From the NCBI GenBank assembly GCA_963751185.1, contig CAVVTO010000009.1, positions 77,838 through 141,837 on the forward strand: DNA of 64,000 nt. The letters run 5' to 3'. Position 1 is the first letter of the stretch. The number at the start of each line of letters is the position of its first letter. Under the pieces are notes generated by a model. The model made no database searches. It was not told the origin of the DNA and saw only the letters and a program-made list of their open reading frames with translations. This document shows, piece after piece, positions 5,782 to 55,004 of this stretch. Position numbers and translations under genes: made by a program. Source of the DNA: an uncultured Solirubrobacterales bacterium. GTDB taxonomy: Bacteria; Actinomycetota; Thermoleophilia; Solirubrobacterales; Solirubrobacteraceae.

Positions 5782-7082
5782 GAGAACACTCCGACGACGT
5801 CATCGAGGACCAGGTCCATTTCGGAGGAGGAGAACTCGAGCTCCACCGCGTCATCACAAAGATCCATGGCGTTGAGGCTGAACATCTCGAACATTGAAGT
5901 CTTGAACCACGGTCCGCGCTCGTGGAGGATCACCTTCACGGCTCTGGCTGGACTGATCACATCGCACAGGCCGCTCCGCAAGCCCACGAAGAAGCCTGCG
6001 CTCTCGACGAACTGCACCGCTTGCGAAAACGGGAACTGGAGCAGCACGGTACCGGCCACCGCCGGTTCTTCGGGGCCGAAGCCGCTCGTGCACACGTCAT
6101 ATCCCCTGGCGGAGAGATCCGCCGCCAGTGAGTTCCAGAACTGCTCGTCATGCCCGTGCACCAGTGAACGCGCGTACGGAGCGAGAATGACCGTCCGTCC
6201 GGGCCTCAACCCGTTGCTGAGGAGCGCAGCCGGAGCCGCGGCCGGATCGGAATCGGACGACGGAACGTCGTGCGGCACGTCATCGTCGAGATCAAACGAT
6301 GCATACCGGAACATCTTCTCGAAGTTCAGCCCGTTGTAGCCCTGCATCTGGGCGACCGAACCGTTGAGAGACGGGTAGTGCATGACCACCAGGTCCTCGG
6401 CCCTGCGCCGAGCGACGCGAGCGTAGTCGACGATGTGCCACAGAACATCCTCGTCGAGTACGACAACCTCGTCAAATCCGAACAGCTCCACCATGCGCCG
6501 GCAGGCCCCGTTCGGGACGGCGATCACGAATCGTTGCACGTTGTTCTTCCGCACGTACTCACGGATGAACAGGCATTCGACGTAGACGTCGCCCGCCGGC
6601 GGCACCGGGGTCAGAAAGACGGTTCGCTTGCCATCGGCGCCATGGGCGAGCTTTCGTAGGGCTATCGCCCCTTTGGCAACCGGGGCCAGTCGGCGCAGGA
6701 ACACCCACCACGCCTTCTTGGGAGGGAGGGCACCGACCGAGAAAACCTGAGTACGCTTCGAATACCCCATCTGGACAACCTGATGGGTCATCTCTGACCA
6801 GTACGTCGGAGACGTGATCACGATTACGCGGTCCTTGTCGAAGGGGGCCAGCACCTCCTCGGGAGTCTGTACCGTCAAACCCAGGTATTCCCGACCGACC
6901 TTTTCCCTGCTGTTATCGATGATGGCGTCGACGGCAAAGCCGCGGTCCTCCAGCCAGCGCTTGCACCGCCCGTCGGTTACTGACGCACCGAACAGGACGA
7001 TCTTCTTGTCGTCGAAGACGCCCCTGCGCGCGAGCCGGCCGACTCGCTTCTCGATGTCGTCGAAGAATCTCTGCAGGCTCAT
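5778..7082 (-). CDS. GT9-like glycosyltransferase with N-terminal Rossmann-like domain; paralog B
   Basis: The track ORF is 5778-7277, but ATG 7082 (MSLQRFFDD...) forms an ATGA overlap with the stop of 7079-7558. KKIVLFGASVTDGRCKRWLEDRGFAVDAIIDNSREKVGREYLGLTVQTPEEV; VFLTPVPPAGDVYVECLFI; AGFFVGLRSGLCDVIS. Aligns by eye with 2747-3967 along its length. Confidence 0.55.
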   Translation of the reverse strand: MSLQRFFDDIEKRVGRLARRGVFDDKKIVLFGASVTDGRCKRWLEDRGFAVDAIIDNSREKVGREYLGLTVQTPEEVLAPFDKDRVIVITSPTYWSEMTHQVVQMGYSKRTQVFSVGALPPKKAWWVFLRRLAPVAKGAIALRKLAHGADGKRTVFLTPVPPAGDVYVECLFIREYVRKNNVQRFVIAVPNGACRRMVELFGFDEVVVLDEDVLWHIVDYARVARRRAEDLVVMHYPSLNGSVAQMQGYNGLNFEKMFRYASFDLDDDVPHDVPSSDSDPAAAPAALLSNGLRPGRTVILAPYARSLVHGHDEQFWNSLAADLSARGYDVCTSGFGPEEPAVAGTVLLQFPFSQAVQFVESAGFFVGLRSGLCDVISPARAVKVILHERGPWFKTSMFEMFSLNAMDLCDDAVELEFSSSEMDLVLDDVVGVFS

Positions 7083-7558
7083 GCTCTGACCATCCCGTGG
7101 CTCCGCAGCCTCAAGCAGCCGAGCGACACCAAATCGTCTTTGGTGACCCCTTGGCGACCCAACAGCCGGTGTAGACCGTTGCCGAACGGCTTGGTCAGCG
7201 ACACAATCAACAAGCGATCGGTGATGCTGCATAGCTCGTAGAACGCGATCAACGCATCGATCTGGCTTGCCGTCCATGACTCGGTGCCGACGATGCCTGG
7301 CGAGCGTTCGGGGTCCGCCCCCGAGTCTCCGAACTCAGACGCGCTCGGTGCTGGCAGCGAGCAGTCGCTCACCAGCACCACGCCTTGCGCACGCCTGTCC
7401 GCGACGAGGTCCTCGATGCGCCTGAGCGCCGCGGCATTCAGCTCGGCGTCGTCCTCCGGGAGGAGGAGCACGTACACACCCTGACCCACGTTGTACTTGC
7501 GCTCGAGTCGGGCCCATAGCCGGCTTCCGCGATAGGCGGCGTAGGTCTGCCTCAACAT
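7079..7558 (-). CDS. Hypothetical protein (159 aa) embedded in the glycan operon
   Basis: The ORF is translationally coupled on both sides (a 1-nt TGATG overlap upstream, ATGA downstream). No family recognised. Confidence 0.5.
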   Translation of the reverse strand: MLRQTYAAYRGSRLWARLERKYNVGQGVYVLLLPEDDAELNAAALRRIEDLVADRRAQGVVLVSDCSLPAPSASEFGDSGADPERSPGIVGTESWTASQIDALIAFYELCSITDRLLIVSLTKPFGNGLHRLLGRQGVTKDDLVSLGCLRLRSHGMVRA

Positions 7559-7932
7559 CAGAGGCTCTCGTCGACGGTGACGGTCATATCCGGCCCCTCA
7601 TCTCGGCTTACGCTCACAGAGACCGCGGTTCTCAACCCGGACGGCTTGGCGTCGTTCACGACGATCCGCTCTCCGAACGGGGCTCCGAAAATGATGTGGT
7701 CGTACCGGATACCGCTCTCGACCAGGAACACTTCGGTTGCCGCGCGATGGCTCTCCCCGCGGCTGGTCACGATCACGACCAGGTCGCCTGCCGGGATCTG
7801 CGCAAGGAGAGCACCGGCTCCCGGCAGGAGACTATCCCGCCCATCGGTCAGGTGCCCGTTGTGCTTGACCAGCGTGCCGTCCAGATCGAGGAACCAGGTG
7901 TGCCCGAGCGGGGAGAGAACGAGTTCCTTCAC
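7558..7932 (-). CDS. Small HAD-superfamily phosphatase
   Basis: FLDLDGTLVKHNG (DxDxT motif I) and VVIVTSR (motif II). GTGA overlap with the upstream SIS gene. Confidence 0.65.
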   Translation of the reverse strand: MKELVLSPLGHTWFLDLDGTLVKHNGHLTDGRDSLLPGAGALLAQIPAGDLVVIVTSRGESHRAATEVFLVESGIRYDHIIFGAPFGERIVVNDAKPSGLRTAVSVSVSRDEGPDMTVTVDESL

Positions 7933-43106: not shown

Positions 43107-44309
43107 TTGCCCATCGGGAGGATCCGTCGCACGACGCAGTTTCTCGGTGCGTTCCTGGTGGTGCTGGGATTGCTGCCCGCCGCTGCAGCTGCAAGCAACA
43201 CGCTCGGCACGTACGGGACGCTCAGCTCGGGCCAGTCGATCGTCTCGCCCGACGGTCACTACGAGCTGATGATGCAGAGCGACGGGAACCTCGTCGAGTC
43301 CATCGTCGGCGGTCGCGTCCTCTGGCAGAGCCGCACGGGCGGCGACACTGGGTCGCACGCCGTCATGCAGCCGGGGGGGAACCTCGCCGTGTACAACTCG
43401 GCCGGCGCCGCCGTCTACAGCAGCAACAGCCGCGGCACTGGTTGCCCGCAGCTCGTCATCCAGGACGACGGGAACGTGGTCATCTACTCCCCCCGAGCCA
43501 TCTGGTCGTCGGCCACGGTGCAGAGCTTGATGGAGCCCGGGGACTTGCTCCGTCCGGGCTGGAGCATCTACTCGCCCTCCGAGCAACTCCAGCTGATCAT
43601 GCAGGACGACGGGAACCTGGTGCTCTACGACGGCGCCGGCAAGGCGCTGTGGGCGAGCGGAACCGACCACCATTCCGGCGCCTACGCGACGATGCAGACC
43701 GACGGCAATTTCGTCGTCTATCCCCCGAGCGGCCGCGCCCTGTGGGCCAGCGACACCGACCACCACGCCGGCGCCTTTCTTTCCCTGCAGAGCGACGGCA
43801 ACCTGGTCGTCTACCAAGGATCCACGCCGCTGTGGGCGAGCAAGACCAACGGCAAGCAAGCCGGAGGCTCGCTGGGAGGAAAGCCGCCCACCGCGGTCAC
43901 GTCCTGCCCGGCGCCCGCGCCGCCGCCGCCGCCCCAACCCGTGGTGACCACGCCGGTCGCCACGACCGTTCCGGTGTCCGTCGCGCCCCACGCCCTCGCG
44001 GTCAGGATCCGGCTCAGCTGGACCTGGAACCACGCCACCACTCACCTGCACGTGGCCAAGATCGGCAGCTTCCCGGGACGCTCGCAGATCTTCGTTCAGT
44101 GTCGCGGCAAGGGTTGTCCACACAAGCACAACATCAGCGCCAGCGGCGCGCGCAATGTGCGGCGACTCCTGCACAAACTGCACGGCAGGCGCTACCGCGC
44201 CGGCGACCGAGTCCTGATCATCCTGAAGGCACCCGGCTACCTGCCCGAGCGGGCGCTGGTGCGGATCCGCAACGGCCGGCTGCCCGAGATCATCCCGCTC
44301 GGGGAGTGA
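43107..44309 (+). CDS. Secreted protein: two bulb-type (B-) lectin domains, a Pro-rich linker, and a conserved basic C-terminal module
   Basis: Signal peptide (FLGAFLVVLGLLPAAAAAS). Six QxDxNxVxY-type subdomain motifs: QSDGNLV, QPGGNLAVY, QDDGNVVIY, QDDGNLVLY, QTDGNFVVY, QSDGNLVVY. PAPAPPPPPQP linker. Confidence 0.75.
   Translation: MPIGRIRRTTQFLGAFLVVLGLLPAAAAASNTLGTYGTLSSGQSIVSPDGHYELMMQSDGNLVESIVGGRVLWQSRTGGDTGSHAVMQPGGNLAVYNSAGAAVYSSNSRGTGCPQLVIQDDGNVVIYSPRAIWSSATVQSLMEPGDLLRPGWSIYSPSEQLQLIMQDDGNLVLYDGAGKALWASGTDHHSGAYATMQTDGNFVVYPPSGRALWASDTDHHAGAFLSLQSDGNLVVYQGSTPLWASKTNGKQAGGSLGGKPPTAVTSCPAPAPPPPPQPVVTTPVATTVPVSVAPHALAVRIRLSWTWNHATTHLHVAKIGSFPGRSQIFVQCRGKGCPHKHNISASGARNVRRLLHKLHGRRYRAGDRVLIILKAPGYLPERALVRIRNGRLPEIIPLGE
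43986..44285 (+). repeat. Copy 1 of a 300-nt duplicated coding module (shared C-terminal domain)
   Basis: PHALAVRIRLSWTWNHATTHLHVAKIGSFPGRSQIFVQCRGKGCPHKHN...GRRYRAGDRVLIILKAPGYLPERALVRIRNGRLP. Long runs of DNA identity with 44836-45135. Confidence 0.85.
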
Positions 44310-44325
44310 CACACACGGTGCTGAG

Positions 44326-45159
44326 ATGAGGAAATTCCTCCGGGCGTCGATCGCCGTCACCATCCTCGCGGGTGGCTTCCTGCTCGCGACGACGCTGGCC
44401 GCGATGGCCTCGACCAACGTCACGGTCAGTCCCCGCGACAACTGCGGCGGCTTCAACGGGCACGTGGTATGGGAGGGTGGCAGCAGTCCCTACATCCAGC
44501 TCTACGGCGAGGTCTGGGACACCGGCTGCCCGGGGAGCACATCGGTGTGGCTCGCGTGGGACAGCCCGAGCTATCACAACATCCAGGCCAACAGCGCCAA
44601 CGAGCCGGACACCGAAGGCGTCAATTACGAGACCGGCACCTCGACCACCCCGACCGCCGTCAAGGTGACGGTGTGCAGCACCAACGGGGGGTGGCACTGC
44701 GGCACCCCGGTGTCGGTGCCGACGGTCTCGACTCCGCCCCCGACGAGCCCGCCGCCGACCCCTTCGCCCACGCCGACCTCGCCGGAGCCGGTGGTCACCA
44801 CACCGACGAGTACATCGATCCCCCAGCCCACCACGCCTCACGAGCTCGCCGTGGCGCTCCAGATGAGCTGGACCTGGGATGCCGCCACCACCCGCCTGCA
44901 CGGGACGAAGCTCGGCAGTCTGCCGGGCCGCACCCAGATCTTCGTTCAATGCCGCGGCAAGGGGTGTCCCGGTAAGCACAACGTCAGCGCGGATGGAGCC
45001 CGCAACGTGCGCCGGCTCCTGCGCCGTCTGCACGGCAGGCGCTACCGCGCCGGCGACCGAGTCCTGATCATCCTGAGGGCGCCCGGCTACCTGCCCGAGC
45101 GGGCGCTCGTGAAGATCCGGGACGGCCGGCTCCCGCGGGTCACCCTGCTGCCGGCCTAG
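44326..45159 (+). CDS. Secreted Cys-containing protein with a Pro/Thr linker and the same C-terminal module
   Basis: Signal peptide (ILAGGFLLATTLAAMAST). Four Cys in the N-domain. PPPTSPPPTPSPTPTSPEP linker. The C-terminal 100 aa are almost identical to those of 43107-44309. Confidence 0.7.
   Translation: MRKFLRASIAVTILAGGFLLATTLAAMASTNVTVSPRDNCGGFNGHVVWEGGSSPYIQLYGEVWDTGCPGSTSVWLAWDSPSYHNIQANSANEPDTEGVNYETGTSTTPTAVKVTVCSTNGGWHCGTPVSVPTVSTPPPTSPPPTPSPTPTSPEPVVTTPTSTSIPQPTTPHELAVALQMSWTWDAATTRLHGTKLGSLPGRTQIFVQCRGKGCPGKHNVSADGARNVRRLLRRLHGRRYRAGDRVLIILRAPGYLPERALVKIRDGRLPRVTLLPA
44836..45135 (+). repeat. Copy 2 of the 300-nt duplicated coding module
   Basis: PHELAVALQMSWTWDAATTRLHGTKLGSLPGRTQIFVQCRGKGCPGKHN...GRRYRAGDRVLIILRAPGYLPERALVKIRDGRLP. 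Confidence 0.85.
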
Positions 45160-45160
45160 C

Positions 45161-45886
45161 TCAGGTTCCCCGGGCGCCCTCGTCGAGGTCGCTCGCGCGG
45201 ACGACGCCACCGGCCAGCGCGCGCTCGGCCAGACGGACGCGCTTCTCGTTCTGAGGCAGCTTCTCTATTCCGAAGCGTTCGAACAGCGCTCGCATGTGGC
45301 TCTTGACGGCGGCCAGGCTGAGCACCAACTCACGCGCGATCTCGTCGTTGGTCGCGGGAGTGGAACGCTCGCCACCGGCGAGCGGCCGGCACAGCGCAAT
45401 CAGGACCTTGCGCTGTGCGTCGGACACCTCGGGAGAGGGGGCGGTCGGCGTGGCGACGGTCGCCACCACCGGCTGGGGCTCGGGATCGCGGAAGCCGAGC
45501 CGCGTCTCGCCGATCTGGATGACGTCGCCGTCGCGCAGCGTCCGTTGCCCGTGCAGCCGCTCGCCCTCCACGAACGTGCCGTTGCGCGACAGGCCGTCGT
45601 CCTGGATCACCCAACGCGACCCCCGGCGCTCGAGGTACGCGTGGACGCCGGAGACGCGCGGGTCCCACGGAATCTCGAGATCGCCGCCGGGGGCGCGGCC
45701 GAGCACCAACCGCTCCGCTTCGAGCGACACGATCACCTGCGCGCCGTCGCCGTCGCGGAGGAACAAGAACGGCATCCCGCGTCGCTCGGCGGCGATCATC
45801 GCCTGTATCTCGGTTGGGCGCAAACCGGGGCCCAGCACAGCCCTTTCCTGCGCTCGCACGACCTCAGGGTAGCCTTGGCGGCGCAT
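45161..45886 (-). CDS. FHA-domain protein with C-terminal LuxR/sigma-r4-like HTH
   Basis: FHA: LVLGRAPGGDLEIPWDPRVSGVHAYL...DDGLSRNGTFVEGERL. C-terminus: TNDEIARELVLSLAAVKSHMRALFERFG. Confidence 0.75.
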   Translation of the reverse strand: MRRQGYPEVVRAQERAVLGPGLRPTEIQAMIAAERRGMPFLFLRDGDGAQVIVSLEAERLVLGRAPGGDLEIPWDPRVSGVHAYLERRGSRWVIQDDGLSRNGTFVEGERLHGQRTLRDGDVIQIGETRLGFRDPEPQPVVATVATPTAPSPEVSDAQRKVLIALCRPLAGGERSTPATNDEIARELVLSLAAVKSHMRALFERFGIEKLPQNEKRVRLAERALAGGVVRASDLDEGARGT

Positions 45887-48800
45887 GAGAGTCGTGGTCG
45901 GCGATGGCGAAGGGGAGGCCGCGGACCTCGAGCTAAGGGTCGCGGACGAGGACGCAACCGTCGGCGACCTGCTCGACGCCCTTCAAGGCGCCGATCTGCC
46001 CAACACGCTCGGAGAGGTCAACGGCGCCGCCGGGATCGTGGTGGATGGACGCTTCTGTCACGCCGACCTCGCGCTGAGCGAGATCGGCATCTACGAGGGC
46101 GCCCGGCTGCGGGCCGCCACCGGTCCGCCCAGCGGACACCCCGAGCGGGCGGGCGTGTCGGAGCTCCGAGTCGTGGCCGGCCTCGACGCCGGCCGGCGAA
46201 TGCCGTTGGGGAACGGACCGGTGACCGTGGGTCGCGACGACGACTGCGATCTCGTCCTGCTCGACGAGGGCGTGTCGCGGCGCCACGTGCAGGTGGCGCC
46301 CGGAGCGAGTGGCCTGCGCGCCACGGTCACCGATCTGGGCTCGATCAACGGCACCTGGGTCGAGGGAAAGCGGATCGAACGCGAGACCGAGCTCTCACCC
46401 GACCAGCTGTTCGAGGCCGGTGACGTCGCGCTGGCAGTCGCGCCGCTGGCGCCCGGCATGGCGATCGATCCGCTCCGCCAGGCCCGCCGGGACGGCACGA
46501 TCCCGTTCAACCGCCCGCCGCGGGCGCGCTCCCCCGAGGCCGGCGGGCCGCTCAGCGCGCCCGAGCGGCCGCCCGATCCCGAGCGACCCCGGCTCAGCAT
46601 CGTCTCCGCCGTCGGGCCGCTGGTGCTCGGCCTCGTGCTGGTGATCGCCCTGCACAACATCCTGTTCGCGCTGTTCATGCTGCTCAGCCCGATCCTGGTG
46701 ATCGGAAGCTGGCTCGAGAACCGCCGCTTTGCGCGGCGGACCGCCCAGGGCCACACGCGCGAGCAGATCCAGCAGCTGGCGCGCTTCCGCGAGGAGGTGG
46801 CCGAGCGCCACGACGCCGAGCTCGCCCGCCTGCGCGCCCGCCTCCCCGACCCGGCCGAGGTGATGCGCCGCGCCACCGCCCCTGACCCCCGCCTATGGGA
46901 GCGCCGGCCCAACCACGAGGACTTTCTCTGGCTGATGGGCGGCCTTGGCCGGGTCCCGTTCCGCCCGCCGCTCGCCCAGCGGCTGGCGCCGGCCCCGCAG
47001 GCCGAGGAGATCCTGGCCGAGCACGCCGAGCTCGAGCTGGCCCCGGTTCGGGTCGACCTGTCGGGTGGAGGCGTGGTCGGGCTGGTCGGCCCGCGCGACG
47101 CCGCGCTGGCGCTGGCCCGGAGCCTGGTCTGCCAGGCCGCGGTCCTGCACGGACCGGCCGATCTGCGCATCGCGGTGCTCACCGAGGCCGGCGGCCGCGA
47201 GGCGTGGGACTGGGCCAAGTGGCTCCCCCACGCGCGCGATGCCGCCTCGGGCGGGGCACGGCGGCTGCTCGCGGCCGGGTCGGCCGATGCGAGCGCGCTG
47301 GCGGCCGAGCTGACCGACCCCGACGGCGGCGATGACCGCCGTGCCCTCGTGGTGCTTGACAGCCCGACCCTGATCGAGGGGCGGGGCGCGGCCGGGCGTG
47401 CGCTCCTGCGCCGCGCCGAGCTGATCAGCGGAATCGTGCTGGCCGGCTCGGTCGAGCGCCTCCCGGCAAGCTGTACGACGGTGGTCGAGCTGTCCACCGA
47501 GGGAGCCGAGGCGACGCTGCGCCGGCCGCAGGCAGGCGAGGTCGTGGACCCGTTGCTGGTGGCCGGGGTCTCGGCGGCGACCGCGCGCGAGTGCGCGTTG
47601 GCGCTGGCGCGGTTCGAGGACGCCGACCTGGAGCTCTCGAGCGGGGCGCTGCCCGAGTACGTGGAGCTGCTGGGGCTGCTCGGACTGCGTGACCTCGACG
47701 GCGACGTGATGCGCTCGCGGTGGACGCGCTCGGCTCCGGAAGCCGGGCTGCGGGCCACGTTCGCCCTCTCCCAGGACGGCCCCTTCAGCGTCGATCTGGT
47801 CGCCGACGGACCGCACGGGTTGATCGCGGGCACGACCGGGGCCGGCAAGAGTGAGCTGCTGCGCAGCCTGGTCGCCGCGCTCGCCGCCGCGCACGGGCCT
47901 GACCGCCTGAATTTCGTGCTGATCGACTACAAGGGCGGCAGTGCGTTCGCGCAGAGCGCCGACCTTCCGCACACCGTCGGCCTCGTCACCGACCTCGACG
48001 AGCAACTCGGCGAGCGGGCACTCCAGAGCCTCGAGGCTGAGCTGCGCTATCGCGAGCGCGTTCTGCGCGAGCATGGCACGGGCGATCTGATCGAGCACGG
48101 CCGACTGATCGCCGAGGGCCGGGCGGAGCCGCTGCCGCGGCTGCTCGTGATCATCGACGAGTTCGCGACGCTGGCCGCCGAGTTGCCGGAGTTCATCGCC
48201 TCCCTGGTCGGGATCGCCCAGCGCGGCCGGAGTCTCGGCGTGCACCTGCTGCTCGCCACCCAGCGGCCCTCGGGCGCGGTCTCGGAGAACATCCGCGCCA
48301 ACACGAACATCAGGATCTGCCTGCGGGTCAACACCCCGCAGGAGTCAAACGACGTGATCGACGCCCCCGCCGCGGCCCAGATCGGGCGAAGCCAGCCCGG
48401 GCGCGCGCAGGTTCGCCTCGGGCCCTCGGAGCTCGTGCCGATCCAGACCGCGCTGGTCAGCACGGTCTCGGCGTCGGGTCCGGGCGGCGCACTCGAGCTG
48501 CGCCCGTTCGGTTTCCCAGTGACCTCGACGGAGCCGTTGGAGCCCGCACCACGTGAGGAGTCCTCGCAGCTCGAGCGGCTGGTCGCTGCCGCGCGCGAGG
48601 CCTCCGCCGAGGAGTCACCGTCCCGCCGGCCCTGGCTGCCGCCGCTGCCGGCGGCAATCGAGCTTGCCGACCTGCTCGAGCTCGGAACGCCGCGCCCGCT
48701 GGGCGGAGAACGGGGGCTCGTGGTTCCCCTCGGCCTGGGCGATGACCCGCCGGCCCAGGCCCAGTACCCGGTGGGCTGGAACCTGGACGCGGGCAACCTG

Positions 48801-50138
48801 CTCCTGTTCGGGATCGGCGGCAGCGGCACCACGACCGCGCTGACCACGCTCGCCACCGCGCTGGCCGAGCTCGCCGAACCCGCCCGGCTTCACATCTACG
48901 CGATGGACTTCGGCGCCGGCGAGCTGGCAGCGCTCGAGCGCCTGGCCAACGTCGGCGCGGTGATCGCCGCGGGCGAGCACGAGCGCCAGCGGCGCCTGCT
49001 CCGCCGGCTCCACGACGAGCTGCGGGCGCGGCGCGGACTGGACGCGAGCGAGCGCGCCCGGCTGCCGCGGGTCGTGCTGCTCCTCGACGGCTACGCCGGG
49101 TTCGCCGCCGAGCACGCCGAAGGCACGGGCGAGTCGGCCCGCGAGGAGCTCGCCCGGGTGTGGGCGGACGGCGCCGAGCTCGGCGTGCACGTAGCGATCG
49201 CCGCCGACCGCCTTGGCGCCGTCCCGCTCTCGCTGTCCTCGCTCGCCCAGCAGCGCCTTGCCTTCCAGCTCGCGGAGCTGGCCGACTACGCCCAGTTCGG
49301 GATCTCGCGCCGCTCGGTGCCGCGCTTCTCGCCGGGGCGGGCGGTCGCCGCCGGGAGCGGTCACGTGCTCCAAGTGGCGCGCCCAGGACAGGCGCTGTCG
49401 CGGCTGCTCGCCGGGGCGGCGGCCGACGTTGGCGTCATGGACGGCGGGCCCGCGCCCGTCGGGGTGCTCCCGGACCGGGTGGCGCTCGAGGCCGTTCTGG
49501 GCGCTCCGGGCCGCGACAGAGACTCCTGGTTCGTGCCGCTGGCGATCGGCGACGAGACGCTCGCGCCCGTCGGCTTCGAGTTGTTCGACGGCGACCACGC
49601 GCTCGTCAGCGGTCCCCCGCGGTCGGGCAAGACCACCGCGCTGCTCACCGCCGCGTCCGTGGCGGCGCGCATGTACCCGGAGGTCGAGCTGTTCGGCGTG
49701 GCGCTGCGCCGCTCTCCTCTACGCGACTGTGCCGGCCTGGCTCGGCTCGCGAGCACCCCTGACGAGCTCGAGGCACTGATCGACGAGCTCCGCGGCAGGG
49801 AGGGCGTCAAGCTGCTGCTGGTCGACGACGCCGAGACCGTCGATGATCCACGGCGGTCGCTGTCTGATCTGCTGTCCGCGCCCGGCACCGGCGTCCACGC
49901 CCTGATCGCGGGCCGGTCAGAGACGTTCCGGGCGCTCGGTCACTGGACCGCAGGCGCCCGGCGCTCCCGCACCGGGCTGTTGCTCGTGCCTGACCTGCAG
50001 ATGGACGGCGCGCTGCTCGGCGCGGCGCTCCCCCGCCGCCCCGTGCCGCCGGCGCGACCGGGATGCGGCTATCTCGTCCGTCCCGACGGGTTCGAGCTGG
50101 TTCAGGTGGCGCTGGCGTCCGACGGCGGCGCCGGCTGA
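45885..50138 (+). CDS. EssC/EccC-like type VII secretion FtsK/SpoIIIE ATPase: N-terminal beta-grasp-like region, FHA, 2 TM, three P-loop domains
   Basis: FHA: VTVGRDDDCDLVLLDEGVSRRHVQV...DLGSINGTWVEG. TM: LSIVSAVGPLVLGLVLVIAL / FALFMLLSPILVIGSWL. Walker A motifs: LIAGTTGAGKSE, LFGIGGSGTTT, VSGPPRSGKTT. Also VIIDEFATL and LLLATQRPSG. Confidence 0.85.
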   Translation: MRVVVGDGEGEAADLELRVADEDATVGDLLDALQGADLPNTLGEVNGAAGIVVDGRFCHADLALSEIGIYEGARLRAATGPPSGHPERAGVSELRVVAGLDAGRRMPLGNGPVTVGRDDDCDLVLLDEGVSRRHVQVAPGASGLRATVTDLGSINGTWVEGKRIERETELSPDQLFEAGDVALAVAPLAPGMAIDPLRQARRDGTIPFNRPPRARSPEAGGPLSAPERPPDPERPRLSIVSAVGPLVLGLVLVIALHNILFALFMLLSPILVIGSWLENRRFARRTAQGHTREQIQQLARFREEVAERHDAELARLRARLPDPAEVMRRATAPDPRLWERRPNHEDFLWLMGGLGRVPFRPPLAQRLAPAPQAEEILAEHAELELAPVRVDLSGGGVVGLVGPRDAALALARSLVCQAAVLHGPADLRIAVLTEAGGREAWDWAKWLPHARDAASGGARRLLAAGSADASALAAELTDPDGGDDRRALVVLDSPTLIEGRGAAGRALLRRAELISGIVLAGSVERLPASCTTVVELSTEGAEATLRRPQAGEVVDPLLVAGVSAATARECALALARFEDADLELSSGALPEYVELLGLLGLRDLDGDVMRSRWTRSAPEAGLRATFALSQDGPFSVDLVADGPHGLIAGTTGAGKSELLRSLVAALAAAHGPDRLNFVLIDYKGGSAFAQSADLPHTVGLVTDLDEQLGERALQSLEAELRYRERVLREHGTGDLIEHGRLIAEGRAEPLPRLLVIIDEFATLAAELPEFIASLVGIAQRGRSLGVHLLLATQRPSGAVSENIRANTNIRICLRVNTPQESNDVIDAPAAAQIGRSQPGRAQVRLGPSELVPIQTALVSTVSASGPGGALELRPFGFPVTSTEPLEPAPREESSQLERLVAAAREASAEESPSRRPWLPPLPAAIELADLLELGTPRPLGGERGLVVPLGLGDDPPAQAQYPVGWNLDAGNLLLFGIGGSGTTTALTTLATALAELAEPARLHIYAMDFGAGELAALERLANVGAVIAAGEHERQRRLLRRLHDELRARRGLDASERARLPRVVLLLDGYAGFAAEHAEGTGESAREELARVWADGAELGVHVAIAADRLGAVPLSLSSLAQQRLAFQLAELADYAQFGISRRSVPRFSPGRAVAAGSGHVLQVARPGQALSRLLAGAAADVGVMDGGPAPVGVLPDRVALEAVLGAPGRDRDSWFVPLAIGDETLAPVGFELFDGDHALVSGPPRSGKTTALLTAASVAARMYPEVELFGVALRRSPLRDCAGLARLASTPDELEALIDELRGREGVKLLLVDDAETVDDPRRSLSDLLSAPGTGVHALIAGRSETFRALGHWTAGARRSRTGLLLVPDLQMDGALLGAALPRRPVPPARPGCGYLVRPDGFELVQVALASDGGAG

Positions 50139-50698
50139 AGCGTGCAGCTCGACGCGATCGAGTCGAACAGCAGCGCGAACTCCGGAGCAGCGTCGACGTG
50201 CGGCGTGGCGAAGGCCAGGGCCAGCACGCCGTGATCGGTCTGTGCCAGGTAGGTGGCGGTGAACATCGCGATCTCCGGAAGGCCGGGATCACTCCGAGTG
50301 CGGGCCAGCCGTTGGACCCGCACGCCCGGACCGCAGGGCAGCTCATACTGGTCGACGTTCTCGTCCGGGAGGTCACCCGCCTCCGGATAGGGGATGTCCG
50401 CCAATGACGCCGCCAGCGTGAACGTCATCGGCACGTTGTCAGGGCGGGGCGCCGCGAACCCCTGGATCGCCACCGTCCCTCCGGCCTCGCCGGCCCGGGC
50501 CAGCGTGGAGACGAGGCCCGCGAGGCGCTCATCACCGCCCGCTTGCTGGCCGCTCGCCACCACCGGGGTCGGGCGAAAGCCGCGCTCGCCCCGCACCTGC
50601 GGAGGCTGGATCGAGAGCACCAGGTCCTCGCCGTCGCGGGACACCGGCCAGCTCAGCCGCGCCTGCGCCGCCTCGGCCGGCTCATCCATGACGCTCAC
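50102..50698 (-). CDS. Hypothetical protein (198 aa) immediately downstream of the candidate T7SS effector
   Basis: ORF with protein-like composition, 33 nt after the stop of 50732-52159. Its 3' end overlaps the convergent EssC-like gene by 37 nt. No family recognised. Confidence 0.45.
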   Translation of the reverse strand: MSVMDEPAEAAQARLSWPVSRDGEDLVLSIQPPQVRGERGFRPTPVVASGQQAGGDERLAGLVSTLARAGEAGGTVAIQGFAAPRPDNVPMTFTLAASLADIPYPEAGDLPDENVDQYELPCGPGVRVQRLARTRSDPGLPEIAMFTATYLAQTDHGVLALAFATPHVDAAPEFALLFDSIASSCTLQPAPPSDASAT

Positions 50699-50731
50699 CC
50701 TAGCGATCCAATTCCGAGACGCCGACGCCGC

Positions 50732-52159
50732 TCATCCGGCCGCGGGCTGGCCCAGCAGCTGGTTGATGTCGCCCTTGGCATGGTCGAGCAGCGGCTCCAT
50801 GACGAACTTGTCGGTTCCGACGTTGACGAGCGACTTGAGCGGGAGCGCCTTGATGTTCGCGAGCTCGGCGCTTTTCTCCGCGCTCTCTACCAGCTCCTTG
50901 CCATTGCCGAGCTTGTCCAGGAACGCGGTCCGCTCGGCCGGGGTCATTCCGTCCTTCATCCCAGCGGTGGCGAGCACCATCTCGCGATCCTCGCTGCTCG
51001 TCATCGCCCTTAGCGCCTGGACATCGTTGAGGCCGCCATCCATCTTTCCCGCGAAACCCTTCACCGCGGTGACGGCGTCCTCGGCGTTGTCCGCCGCGAT
51101 CGAGCCGGGCAGCGCGTCGCCGAGCTCGGGCGCCCCGAGTGCCCCGGGCAGGGTCGTCCCAAGGTCGAGGGCGGCGTCCGCGAAGTCCGCGCCCATGGCC
51201 GAGAAGTGACCCTCAACCCCGTCCTCGACGCCCTGGCCCACCTCGGCACCGGCGCCGTCCAGGCTGGCACCGGTCGCGACGGCGTCGAACACGTCGCTCG
51301 CCGTGTCCAGAGCGCCGGCCAGCACGCACTCCTCGGGCAGCAGCCACTCGCCGACGCCGCAGAACAGCAGCGCGACGCTGGCGGTGATCGCGACGTCCTC
51401 GGCCAACTTCTCGAACGTCTTCCAGCTCGGGTGCTCGGCGAACGCCATGAACGCGCCCGGTAGCCCGATCACGCCGTGGTAGGCGGTGTCGATCACGCCC
51501 CAGGCGAAGTGCCCGGCGTCCTTCATCCAGTTGCCCACGTCCGACATCACGTGGTCCCACCAGCTCTGGTGGGGGGCGAGCGAGCAAGCATTTGAGACCT
51601 TGCCCTGGCAGCCGTCGCGCGCGCCCTGGAAGCGATTCAGCAGCGCGAATCCCTGGGCCTCGAGGCCGCTGACCTCGCCCTGCAGGCGCGACACGGTGCC
51701 GCTCGCGCTCTGGACCGCGTCATGGGCGTTCTGGACCGCGGGCGAGGTCGCCTTGGCGTGGGGCGCGACGAGCGCGTTGGTCAGGTTGCCCTGGGCGTTC
51801 GCCAGCTGCCCCTGCGCGCCACTGAGCGCGCCGCGAGCGTTGCCGAGCTGTTCGGCGATGCGCTGGAAGGCCGGCTTGACGTCGTTCAGCTCGCTCTCGT
51901 AGGAGCTGAGCGCTCCGGCGACGTCCTCGTAGGACTGCTGGACCTTGTCGAGCTGGCTGGGGAGTTGGCCGACGTTGGCGCGGAACGCGCTTGCCGCGGC
52001 CCCGGTCCAGGTGGCCTCGTGCGGCGCGCCCCGTAGGGCACCGGCAATGCCCTGGGCCTCGGTGCCAACCTGCCGAAACAGCGCCGCCAGGATCCACACC
52101 TCGCCCGGATCGGCCGACAGCAGGTCGGCGGCGCGCGGATCAGATAGTGGATCGCTCAT
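50732..52159 (-). CDS. Candidate T7SS substrate/effector: WXG/LXG-like helical N-terminus, hydrophobic middle, unknown C-terminus
   Basis: N-terminus ...ALRGAPHEATWTGAAASAFRANVGQLPSQLDKVQQSYEDVAGALSSYESEL (W-x-G helix-turn-helix), then coiled-coil Ala/Gln-rich repeats. Hydrophobic stretches GLPGAFMAFA and ITASVALLFCGVGEWLL. Confidence 0.6.
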   Translation of the reverse strand: MSDPLSDPRAADLLSADPGEVWILAALFRQVGTEAQGIAGALRGAPHEATWTGAAASAFRANVGQLPSQLDKVQQSYEDVAGALSSYESELNDVKPAFQRIAEQLGNARGALSGAQGQLANAQGNLTNALVAPHAKATSPAVQNAHDAVQSASGTVSRLQGEVSGLEAQGFALLNRFQGARDGCQGKVSNACSLAPHQSWWDHVMSDVGNWMKDAGHFAWGVIDTAYHGVIGLPGAFMAFAEHPSWKTFEKLAEDVAITASVALLFCGVGEWLLPEECVLAGALDTASDVFDAVATGASLDGAGAEVGQGVEDGVEGHFSAMGADFADAALDLGTTLPGALGAPELGDALPGSIAADNAEDAVTAVKGFAGKMDGGLNDVQALRAMTSSEDREMVLATAGMKDGMTPAERTAFLDKLGNGKELVESAEKSAELANIKALPLKSLVNVGTDKFVMEPLLDHAKGDINQLLGQPAAG

Positions 52160-52174
52160 CGGTTGCGTGCTCTC

Positions 52175-52456
52175 CTACGCGCGGCACGCGTCCGCGATGT
52201 GCTGGTCCGAGGACGAGTACGTCGCGGCCGCCTTTCCCAGGTTCTCGACGACATGCTCCATGTGCTGCTGAAGGAGCCCGATCCCGTAGTGCCAGTTGTC
52301 GCAGAAGTGCTCGATCTCGCCCTCGAGCGCCCGCCCGCCCAGCACGCCCTGAAAACCGGACGCGACATCGTGCATCGCTTCCATCTGGCCGCACAGGCCG
52401 CCCAGCGTGCTCGCCAGCGCCTGCAGGCTTGCCGGATCGACGGTGAACGTGGCCAT
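52175..52456 (-). CDS. Small helical WXG100-partner-like protein (93 aa, no WXG)
   Basis: About 100-aa size, helical composition, position between the WXG100 gene and the large substrate gene. Its stop lies 15 nt upstream of the next start. Confidence 0.55.
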   Translation of the reverse strand: MATFTVDPASLQALASTLGGLCGQMEAMHDVASGFQGVLGGRALEGEIEHFCDNWHYGIGLLQQHMEHVVENLGKAAATYSSSDQHIADACRA

Positions 52457-52470
52457 TTCGCGAACCGGGA

Positions 52471-52761
52471 TCAGCCCATCGAGCTGCGGATTGCGTCCTC
52501 AGTGGCCTGATACTGCGTGCCGGCCGAGTTGAGCAGCCGCGAGATACCGTCGAGCGCGTCCTTCAGACCGGCCGCCGAGCGCTGCCACTCATCCCACAGT
52601 GTGTTGAACTGCGACGACGCGGCGCCCTGCCAGTCGGCGCCGACCACGCCGGAGACCTCGCCGGCCATCCGCGCGAGCTGGTCCTGGATGCTGTTGGACC
52701 CAGCCAGTACCTGCCCCGACAGCGAATGCAGATCCTCCGAGGTAACCCTGATCAAGGTCAT
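52471..52761 (-). CDS. WXG100 (EsxA-like) protein, 96 aa
   Basis: MTLIRVTSEDLHSLSGQVLAGS...GADWQGAASSQFNTLWDEWQRSAAGLKDAL...YQATEDAI. GGAG Shine-Dalgarno before ATG 52761; the track ORF over-extends to 53052. Confidence 0.8.
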   Translation of the reverse strand: MTLIRVTSEDLHSLSGQVLAGSNSIQDQLARMAGEVSGVVGADWQGAASSQFNTLWDEWQRSAAGLKDALDGISRLLNSAGTQYQATEDAIRSSMG

Positions 52762-52898: not shown

Positions 52899-53360
52899 GT
52901 GGCGAGGCTCGTGGCACTGGGTGCGGCGATGGTTGTGGTGGCATTCGGCGCCGCCTTCGGCATCTCGCGCGCCGCCAGCGGCGGCGGATCGACCGCGCAT
53001 GCGGCGAAGCCGGCGAATCGGCCCGCGGCCACCCCAGCCAGGGATGCGGCACTGGCGACGGCCTTCTCGGGTCAGCTCGTCTCGTTGAAGCTCCCGCCCG
53101 CAGTCAAGCCGCCGGCGCACAAGCGGGCCAAGCACCACTCGGTCGCGTCCAGCTCTGCGGCTGCGTCTTCCTCGGCCTCGTCGGCCTCGTCCGCCCCGCC
53201 CTCGAGGTCGACCTCGTCCTCGCCCCCGGTGGCCCCGGTGGCTCCGGCGCAGAGCGTCACGCCGGCGGACGTGGGCGGCGGCTCGTCAGGCGCAGGGACG
53301 ACCCACCACAGCTCTCATCACCACAGCGGCAGCGGCTCGGGCACGATCACGATCGGCTGA
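52899..53360 (+). CDS. Small N-terminally anchored Ser/Ala/His-rich low-complexity protein (153 aa)
   Basis: MARLVALGAAMVVVAFGAAFGISRAAS (TM or signal anchor), then SSSAAASSSASSASS and HHSSHHHSGSGSG. Confidence 0.4.
   Translation: MARLVALGAAMVVVAFGAAFGISRAASGGGSTAHAAKPANRPAATPARDAALATAFSGQLVSLKLPPAVKPPAHKRAKHHSVASSSAAASSSASSASSAPPSRSTSSSPPVAPVAPAQSVTPADVGGGSSGAGTTHHSSHHHSGSGSGTITIG

Positions 53361-53393: not shown

Positions 53394-55004
<1,611 letters not shown>

Follow-up and report, generated by a model that had tools for sequence, protein, structure and literature searches.

In this study, we analysed a 64-kb stretch of DNA from an uncultured Solirubrobacterales bacterium (contig CAVVTO010000009.1; hereafter the window) and characterised a compact, conserved four-gene module of a type VII secretion system (T7SS). 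The module encodes a WXG100 protein of 96 amino acids (aa), a 93-aa helical protein (p93), a 475-aa protein with a WXG-type head (encoded by N475) and a 198-aa protein (p198). Its distinctive traits are a secretion signal cleanly divided between two proteins, a hydrophobic segment for delivery, an accessory family that lacks annotation and a hypervariable cassette with sharp boundaries. Taken as a whole, we read it as a T7SS substrate (the 475-aa protein) with its partner (p93) and a dedicated chaperone or adaptor (p198), a reading that we hold to be slightly better than an even call. Most of what is known about the recognition of actinobacterial T7SS toxins, their safekeeping inside the producer and their passage across the target membrane comes from the LXG/Lap and PE/PPE/EspG paradigms.

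The original prediction, made without database searches, had described four co-directional genes with short gaps that form an esx-like substrate operon beside a T7SS ATPase, and this outline was borne out. All four open reading frames (ORFs) lie on the minus strand with intergenic gaps of 14, 15 and 33 nt, and the gene of an FHA-EssC protein adjoins them. The 93-, 475- and 198-aa ORFs are real genes, because their third-position GC is high (0.88-0.91) in GC-rich DNA (the genome has ~70% GC). Moreover, about 30 Solirubrobacterales species share the order Ser/Thr protein kinase, (transmembrane protein), WXG100, p93, N475, p198, convergent FHA-EssC and FHA regulator. Such a recurrence in species-level genomes goes far beyond chance and confirms that the four genes are real. 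In these comparisons, genes were mapped with hidden Markov models (HMMs) built on the fetched loci; the E-values of such iterated HMMs apply to a database of very small size. The WXG100 gene lies 2.3 kb from EssC, a linkage that is kept in ~30 loci. Its product was correctly identified as a WXG100 protein, since it matches Pfam WXG100 (PF06013) at 75.6 bits (cutoff 27.3) and TIGR03930 at 64.2 bits (cutoff 44.85). In its family, WxG is present in 44 of 44 members and YxxxD/E in 43 of 44, and the gene is the most conserved of the locus (75-98% identity). Hence, the 96-aa protein is likely the core, homodimeric EsxA-like substrate of the T7SS. Three relatives (L012, L019 and L029, ~6980-7670) carry two tandem WXG100 genes upstream of p93, not one.

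The evidence that the 475-aa protein is itself a substrate comes from the way in which two secretion motifs are distributed. Near the C-terminus of the p93 family, YxxxD/E is found in 74 of 76 proteins, and WxG in none of the 76. The N475 family, in which YxxxD/E was not scored, displays WxGxxAxx[FY]R in 68 of its 82 members. A split arrangement of WxG and YxxxD/E is well established for the PE/PPE and EsxB/EsxA pairs. The division of the same motifs between N475 and p93 therefore argues for a heterodimeric targeting module made of p93 and the N-terminal domain of the 475-aa protein (N-domain), with the 475-aa protein as a substrate. By sequence and by analogy, a heterodimer that displays a composite secretion signal is the most likely role of the pair. 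In agreement with these data, a p93-like gene is always located directly upstream of the N475-type gene; this holds for modules that lie apart from EssC (L005, L024, L028) and also for Mycobacteriales. On its own, the 93-aa protein gives only a weak match to the EspC family (23.5 bits); its relative from L067 matches WXG100 at 28.9 bits. Many loci have a second pair beyond EssC (L001 16250-18009, L004 14988-17407, L015, L018, L020, L040, L041), consisting of a p93-like gene and the N475 N-domain alone (155-205 aa). This second pair, in which the truncated N-domain copy has neither hydrophobic segment nor tail, looks like an extra Esx-like heterodimer and is missing from the window. The pairing of a p93-like gene with a truncated N-domain copy in several loci is consistent with an obligate p93/N-domain pair.

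The head of the 475-aa protein had been described as WXG/LXG-like, of which the WXG half stood and the LXG half did not. The N-terminus of the window protein matches WXG100 (25.8 bits) and T7SS_signal (PF21725; 17.6 bits against a cutoff of 27) below threshold. At the family level, 40 of 42 members match WXG100 and 36 of 42 match PF21725 at E<0.01 (best PF21725 3e-7). On the other hand, LXG (PF04740) gave no match at E<=0.1 for the 475-aa protein, nor at E<=0.01 for the 42 family members. Judged from these sequence matches, the N-domain appears to be a divergent T7SS_signal domain. Profile searches of the PDB returned only marginal EsxB/ESAT-6 matches, to the N-domain. The AlphaFold2 (AF2) model comprises helices at residues 18-47, 54-131 and 140-194, with pLDDT mostly 80-94 and lower at ~30-70. 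Across the family, truncated paralogues included, the N-terminal 20 residues hardly vary (MSDPLSDPRAxDLLSADPGEV; 52007-52159 encode residues 1-51), and at least 90% of N475 members have Thr as the x of WxG. Such a conserved start may act as a docking motif or as a phosphorylation site in the kinase/FHA circuit of the locus.

Two hydrophobic stretches had been noted behind the head. Residues 256-274 form the only stretch of transmembrane grade (Kyte-Doolittle 1.91 over 19 residues); the other, GLPGAFMAFA, is too short to span a membrane. A hydrophobic segment follows the helical domain in all the shorter relatives that were read except L049, toxins of Mycobacteriales and Streptomyces included. 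The isolated middle regions of five proteins did not match PT-TG (PF14449) at E<=10. As had been claimed, the C-terminal region falls into no known family: the tail has no Pfam, NCBIfam, PDB sequence or Foldseek match. Residues ~350-440 are modelled as a helical domain (pLDDT ~82). BAR-domain-like helical bundles, retrieved by Foldseek with the 475-aa model (pLDDT 62), were rejected as generic helical matches (E>0.06). The sole invariant residues of the tail across the family are Gly and Ala; since no polar or catalytic-type residue is invariant, its sequence suggests that the tail is probably non-enzymatic. In a full alignment, the homologous tails share the motifs G-H-[WYF]..A..D and, C-terminally, GRPL..D..EP. 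Single-linkage clustering of tails merged all of them, which indicates that most of the seemingly different tails are homologous and highly diverged. A tail-only profile search is uninformative on other trafficking domains, since out of 8000 candidates it retrieved only two fragments and failed to find members already known.

The window is 98% identical to L008, a contig of an uncultured Solirubrobacterales metagenome-assembled genome (MAG). For the 475-aa protein, 45 close homologues were found, and every one of them stems from MAGs or metagenomes of Solirubrobacteraceae type or of Dormibacteraeota. Residues 1-~260 align in all 45, and the tail is recognised by BLAST in only 18. The window protein does show the layout of polymorphic T7SS toxins that had been proposed for it, in which a hydrophobic region separates the secretion domain from a variable C-terminus. 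The suggested check, other C-termini behind the same N-domain, was also positive: P0033 ends in a GH-E nuclease, and P0021 in an NlpC/P60-like domain recognised by eye from its DCSGF motif, with no Pfam match. Further off, proteins retrieved with the family profile that have PF21725 above threshold carry RHS (L054, L057; 262 bits), Gln deamidase (L045, L050) or NTase-like (L045) C-termini. The RHS proteins come from Streptosporangiales, and the deamidase toxins, which match PF21725 at 34-40 bits, from Mycobacteriales. Most core-locus N475 copies retain homologous tails. On sequence grounds, the polymorphic-toxin signature is present at the superfamily level. The same four-gene operon was also found beside a divergent FHA-EssC in another lineage (L067).

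The role of p198 is best approached from the loci in which the chassis bears a true toxin. Wherever the C-terminus is a recognisable toxin (L071, L045, L050), a classical immunity gene directly follows it, and the p198-family gene is extra. The order in L071 is N475-GH-E, SUFU (70.6 bits) and a p198-like gene, which an HMM iterated over the fetched loci matched at E=2e-22. Two loci from Mycobacteriales MAGs (L045, L050) read p93, p198-like, Gln_amidase toxin and Imm35 (52 bits). In L045, a single p93 and a single p198-like gene lie between two toxin genes whose N-halves are nearly identical and whose C-terminal domains differ. We assign the Mycobacteriales proteins to the p198 family because of a transitive BLAST and profile search: BLAST links them to P0142, P0132 and P0128 (1e-9 to 1e-14), three proteins that the Solirubrobacterales p198 profile in turn retrieved, at 3e-5 to 3e-7, from 1.84 billion library proteins. 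Direct hhalign comparison of the Mycobacteriales proteins with p198 gave a probability of 66%. The p198 family thus tracks the chassis whatever toxin domain it carries and coexists with immunity genes, and hence behaves like a chaperone or adaptor. From this gene context, p198 is probably not an immunity protein.

As predicted, p198 has no known family either: it lacks any Pfam, NCBIfam or PDB sequence match, and no Pfam family was found for 85 family members. The library-wide profile search delimits a family of 107 clusters at 50% identity. The protein has no signal peptide or transmembrane helix (maximum Kyte-Doolittle 1.16), and its AF2 model has a pLDDT of 81.5 and a pTM of 0.79. Foldseek matched this model to 3lyd, Tsi3, LpqN, Mtc28, PsbP, EagT6, SciW and DcrB with TM-scores of 0.3-0.5 and a best E of 7e-4, the only one with E<1e-3. 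Foldseek probabilities were 0.9-1.0 for most of the 3lyd, Tsi3, LpqN, Mtc28 and PsbP matches, and 0.6-0.9 for EagT6 and SciW. We take these structures to represent the Mog1p/PsbP-like fold class. The matches are weak but consistent, and p198 is predicted to adopt a Mog1p/PsbP-like alpha/beta fold. DUF1795 (PF08786) had no sequence match in the p198 family. An EspG-like fold was considered and rejected, as no EspG structure was among the top 50 Foldseek matches. In L006 (7585-8762), N475 is followed by a tandem of p198 paralogues, 203 and 189 aa long, that have diverged from each other; they could form a heterodimeric chaperone, or one could be an orphan immunity-like copy.

The tail and p198 also stand out by their rate of change. 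Nucleotide identity with L009 falls to 54-72% in 50200-51400 (54-59% in 50400-51200), and both flanks are mostly at 84-96%, with smaller dips elsewhere; outside the cassette, the two loci share 85-94% of their nucleotides. At the protein level, these are the fastest-evolving parts of the locus, with 27-34% identity (27-30% for the tail) versus 65% for EssC and ~80% for WXG100. The window and L009 share 90% identity in the N-domain, 44% in the tail and 52% in p198; the corresponding values for L009 and L002 are 64%, 71% and 64%. Tail and p198 types switch together, incongruently with the N-domain tree, and their distances are correlated when the N-domain is controlled for (partial Mantel r=0.83; 0 of 2000 permutations). 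The boundaries of this cassette mark the parts of the locus under conflict-type selection.

The chaperone reading has to be weighed against several points. The p198 gene displays classic immunity features: it is located directly downstream of N475, with a start/stop overlap in most homologous loci, it diversifies and changes type together with the tail, and it is duplicated in tandem in L006. The main caveat is that p198 of L071 could be an orphan immunity gene, retained after the C-terminal domain was displaced. In addition, no p198-like gene lies within 8 kb in Streptomyces L053, which has the hydrophobic segment, nor on the 9.4-kb contig of L005. The matches to Eag chaperone folds are weak (TM-score 0.30-0.42, E 0.07-0.2), and the better-ranked ones include an immunity protein from type VI secretion systems (T6SS), Tsi3 (E=4e-3). 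Physical linkage alone could explain the co-variation of tail and p198. Finally, AF2 confidence is below 50 for residues 196-347, and the transmembrane status of the segment comes from hydropathy alone.

The immunity features among these points would fit the proposal, already made in the original prediction, that the tail and p198 are a toxin/immunity pair, with the C-terminal 200 residues being an undescribed non-enzymatic or cryptic T7SS toxin and p198 its cognate cytoplasmic immunity protein. The 475-aa protein and p198 are also both acidic, as in many such pairs, which is weak evidence. However, p198 accompanies N475 proteins whatever their C-terminus and coexists with SUFU (L071) and Imm35 (L045, L050), and in Mycobacteriales the p198-like gene stands upstream, beside p93, and not after the toxin. 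The tail has no invariant catalytic-type residue, and no toxin family was detected in it. All tail types are homologous and sit on the same N-domain, unlike the shuffled domains of polymorphic systems. Moreover, p198 is soluble, and against a toxin that acts on membranes one would expect the immunity protein to be located in the membrane or outside the cytoplasm. What survives of the proposed pair is its co-variation as a cassette; as an explanation of p198, we regard it as unlikely. The 475-aa protein does fit an effector chassis, for which p198 is unlikely to provide the immunity. The suggested likeness to membrane-depolarising toxins of the TspA/TelE type found no support, as there is no LXG domain, no glycine zipper on reading and no gene for a membrane immunity protein.

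A further alternative is that the 475-aa protein is a membrane-anchored subunit of the core machine, in which the WXG-like domain would dock onto EssC, helix 256-274 would anchor the protein and the variable domain would be exposed, with p198 as an assembly factor. One copy is indeed present beside EssC in nearly every Solirubrobacterales locus, surface exposure would account for the hypervariability, and the window operon has neither catalytic residues in the tail nor an immunity gene. A Pfam scan of the neighbours found no EccB/D/E, MycP, EssA/B or EsaA homologue near the operon and the 64-kb window has no protein of the size of TsdI (see below), so extra membrane subunits seem needed. Nevertheless, this alternative is quite improbable: the split WxG and YxxxD/E signal is a hallmark of secreted substrates; L024 and L028 carry the whole p93-N475-p198 trio and no EssC within 8 kb, and the NlpC/P60-like version in L005 has p93 and another 96-aa gene on a 9.4-kb contig devoid of EssC; on the same chassis sit nuclease and cell-wall hydrolase domains, which need to be exported from the cell; and only one, moderately hydrophobic helix is available. 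The original prediction had reserved a core role for the case of an invariant C-terminus always linked to the ATPase; the linkage is almost always there, but the C-terminus is far from invariant.

Returning to the substrate and chaperone reading, the operon would be the resident substrate set of a kinase/FHA-regulated, EssC-driven T7SS in this Solirubrobacterales bacterium, with the 96-aa WXG100 protein as the core EsxA-like substrate. p93, with its YxxxD/E, and the N-domain of the 475-aa protein, with its WxG, would form a heterodimeric helical bundle and present a composite signal to EssC, in the manner of PE/PPE, EsxB/EsxA and Lap/LXG. After export, the hydrophobic segment would enter a membrane, with the diversifying, non-enzymatic helical C-terminal domain behind it. 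In the cytoplasm, p198 would bind the hydrophobic and variable C-terminal half, keep it soluble, prevent its insertion into the membrane of the producer before export and stay behind. In this sense, its role may be likened to that of EspG for PPE proteins, or of Eag/DUF1795 proteins for transmembrane T6SS effectors. In relatives, the same chassis bears true toxin domains with their own immunity genes. Assembly and transcription are probably gated by the kinase, by the FHA domain of EssC, which is competent for phosphothreonine (pThr), and by the FHA-LuxR protein. What the data show directly is the gene content, the motifs, the synteny, the domain swaps, the hypervariable cassette and the retention of p198-family genes next to classical immunity genes; that p93 and the N-domain dimerise, that the 475-aa protein is secreted and enters a membrane and that p198 binds it are the steps that we infer.

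We also put forward, as a tentative idea that is possible rather than probable, that the p198 family may be an unrecognised class of T7SS effector chaperones, a counterpart of Eag/DUF1795, which grips the hydrophobic helices of T7SS_signal-headed effectors across Actinomycetota, Mycobacteriales included. If so, these effectors would insert into target membranes by their own helices and so carry the C-terminal domain across, and the core-locus protein of Solirubrobacterales would be a "cargo-less", hypervariable archetype of the delivery chassis. The unannotated p198 family also accompanies deamidase toxins in Mycobacteriales. Should the chaperone reading be true, T6SS and T7SS would have converged on the same solution for exporting membrane-inserting effectors, and p198 would offer a handle for finding such effectors through guilt by association.

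The module resembles several known systems and coincides with none. As in the PE/PPE/EspG sets of mycobacterial ESX systems (T7SSa), a partner of ~95 aa with YxxxD/E goes with a larger partner that has WxG in a ~190-aa helical N-domain and a variable C-terminus, and a dedicated soluble cytoplasmic protein is encoded alongside. However, neither the 93- nor the 475-aa protein has a Pfam match to PE (PF00934) or PPE (PF00823), the only PE match being a weak one to the WXG100 protein. In further contrast with T7SSa, the window ATPase is FHA-EssC-like, no EccB/D/E or MycP genes were found nearby, and p198 matches Mog1p/PsbP-like folds. Two further toxin types, LXG toxins that go with Lap partners (T7SSb) and WXG-PT-TG toxins, are documented in Bacillota (PMC10801868, PMC13483458). 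Both have small helical partner genes upstream, a helical targeting N-domain, a pre-toxin region and a variable C-terminus, and relatives of the 475-aa protein likewise carry nuclease or hydrolase domains with downstream immunity genes. The differences are the lack of LXG and PT-TG matches here, one partner instead of two or three, a window C-terminus that is not a recognisable toxin and the absence of a separate immunity gene. PF21725-headed toxins of Actinomycetota share an apparently homologous N-domain and an upstream p93-like partner with the window protein, which differs in its sub-threshold score, its position in a core locus beside EssC and its lack of an identifiable toxin domain. The Eag (DUF1795) chaperones of prePAAR T6SS effectors (EagT6-Tse6, SciW; PDB 6XRF, 6XRB) are small soluble alpha/beta proteins of the Mog1p/PsbP-like class, as p198 is predicted to be; their genes adjoin effectors with hydrophobic helices, and they show effector-specific co-variation. 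Yet they belong to another secretion system and have no sequence similarity to p198, the structural matches are as low as stated above, and binding of the hydrophobic segment by p198 is something that we infer. Literature searches, confined to one paper library, on PF21725, DUF6317, T7SS in Solirubrobacter and DUF1795 with T7SS found nothing relevant.

Table 1. Features of the T7SS locus, in window coordinates.
Feature	Coordinates	Strand	Remarks
WXG100 gene	52471..52761	-	96 aa; WQG and YxxxE; Pfam WXG100 75.6 bits, TIGR03930 64.2 bits
93-aa gene (p93)	52175..52456	-	helical partner, PE/EsxB/Lap-like; YxxxD/E as TYSSSD, without WxG
475-aa gene (N475)	50732..52159	-	WXG-headed protein
N475 residues 1-195	51575..52159	-	WXG/T7SS_signal-type helical targeting domain; MSDPLSDPRA start, WTGAAASAFR, long helices
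N475 residues 196-275	51335..51574	-	amphipathic/hydrophobic middle; helix of transmembrane grade at 256-274 (51338-51394)
N475 residues 276-475	50735..51334	-	acidic Ala/Gly linker, helical domain ~350-440, C-terminal motif D-K/N-x3-D/E-P; fast-evolving
198-aa gene (p198)	50102..50698	-	undescribed family, cytoplasmic, predicted Mog1p/PsbP-like alpha/beta fold
Hypervariable cassette	50200..51400		198-aa gene and 475-aa codons ~253 onward; from nucleotide identity with L009
FHA-EssC/EccC-type FtsK/SpoIIIE ATPase	45885..50138	+	1417 aa; FtsK_SpoIIIE 178 bits, FHA 52 bits (Pfam)
FHA + LuxR/GerE-HTH protein	45161..45886	-	241 aa; FHA 56.8 bits, GerE 19.9 bits; divergent from EssC
Single-pass membrane protein	52899..53360	+	153 aa; Kyte-Doolittle 2.42; between kinase and WXG100, opposite strand
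Membrane Ser/Thr protein kinase	53394..55004	-	536 aa; Pkinase 161.6 bits; transmembrane helix ~389-407, Kyte-Doolittle 2.59

Some gene limits in Table 1 differ, or may differ, from those of the mechanical ORFs. The WXG100 ORF runs mechanically to 53052 (193 aa), and in that form failed the third-position GC filter. Its start was placed at the ATG at 52761, which has GAGGAG 8 nt before it and yields the 96 aa of the homologues. Good Shine-Dalgarno sequences were seen for the WXG100 and 475-aa genes. From comparison with its closest homologues, p198 possibly starts at the ATG at 50689, which would give it their length of 195 aa. The 3' end of EssC overlaps the convergent 198-aa gene by 37 bp. 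A scan for promoters and terminators returned 0 sites.

The genes around the operon fit a phospho-regulated system. The window ATPase matches TIGR03928 (EssC) at 488 bits, under the cutoff of 778, and its FHA domain, read from the translation, retains the pThr-binding residues GR...SRRH...NG. EssC residues 1-95 (45885-46170), ahead of the FHA domain, had the look of a fused ubiquitin-like (YukD) domain, but no Pfam match to YukD was found there at E<=10. The kinase gene is located upstream of the operon in the same direction and is syntenic in nearly all loci. The FHA-LuxR gene is conserved beside EssC across loci, and its product is likely a phospho-dependent regulator of the locus. The 153-aa membrane protein, which has no Pfam match, is conserved in many loci as judged by an HMM (TM153). 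Its Pro/Ser/Thr-rich tail ends in ...SGSGSGTITIG, and the long p93-like paralogues encoded next to EssC in L001 and L004 have a similar C-terminal end, SGSGTT..G. This protein could be a TsdH-like component, or the bearer of a shared recognition motif.

Another described arrangement that the locus resembles is T7SSd, which comprises the WXG100 protein TsdA, the FHA-ATPase TsdC and the membrane Ser/Thr kinase TsdD (Garrett, Higginson and Palmer 2024, PMC11217815). As in T7SSd, the window has, in a member of Actinomycetota, a WXG100 protein, an FHA-ATPase with intact pThr residues and a membrane kinase, and its small single-pass membrane protein is a possible counterpart of TsdH. Unlike T7SSd, it has an additional FHA-LuxR regulator, the p93/N475/p198 trio is not part of that classification, and the host belongs to Thermoleophilia rather than to Coriobacteriia or Bifidobacterium. 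TsdI of T7SSd is a cell-envelope protein of ~1650 aa with a Sec signal and Ig-like repeats (PMC11217815). No such large Ig-repeat protein is encoded in the 64-kb window, where EssC is the sole ORF above 1200 aa and, apart from it, only that of the DNA polymerase III alpha subunit exceeds 700 aa; Pfam scans of neighbouring genes gave domains unrelated to TsdI. With this locus, the recently enlarged list of T7SS subtypes gains a variant from Thermoleophilia.

Two observations concern genes at a greater distance from the operon. In Mycobacteriales, copies of an ORF of ~80 aa with a CxxC...CGHH zinc ribbon flank the toxin/Imm35 module (L050, 7513-7770 and 9805-10038, both on the minus strand; L045, 1248-1481). 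This module lies between helicase-like and sigma-70 genes, which suggests insertion at a duplicated site. In the window, a B_lectin protein (400 aa) and a signal-peptide protein (277 aa) are encoded on the plus strand at 43107-45159 and have in common a C-terminal domain of ~100 aa with 77% identity. In many relatives, genes like that of the 277-aa protein lie at the side of the T7SS locus, a pattern that points to a Sec-secreted neighbour inherited together with it.

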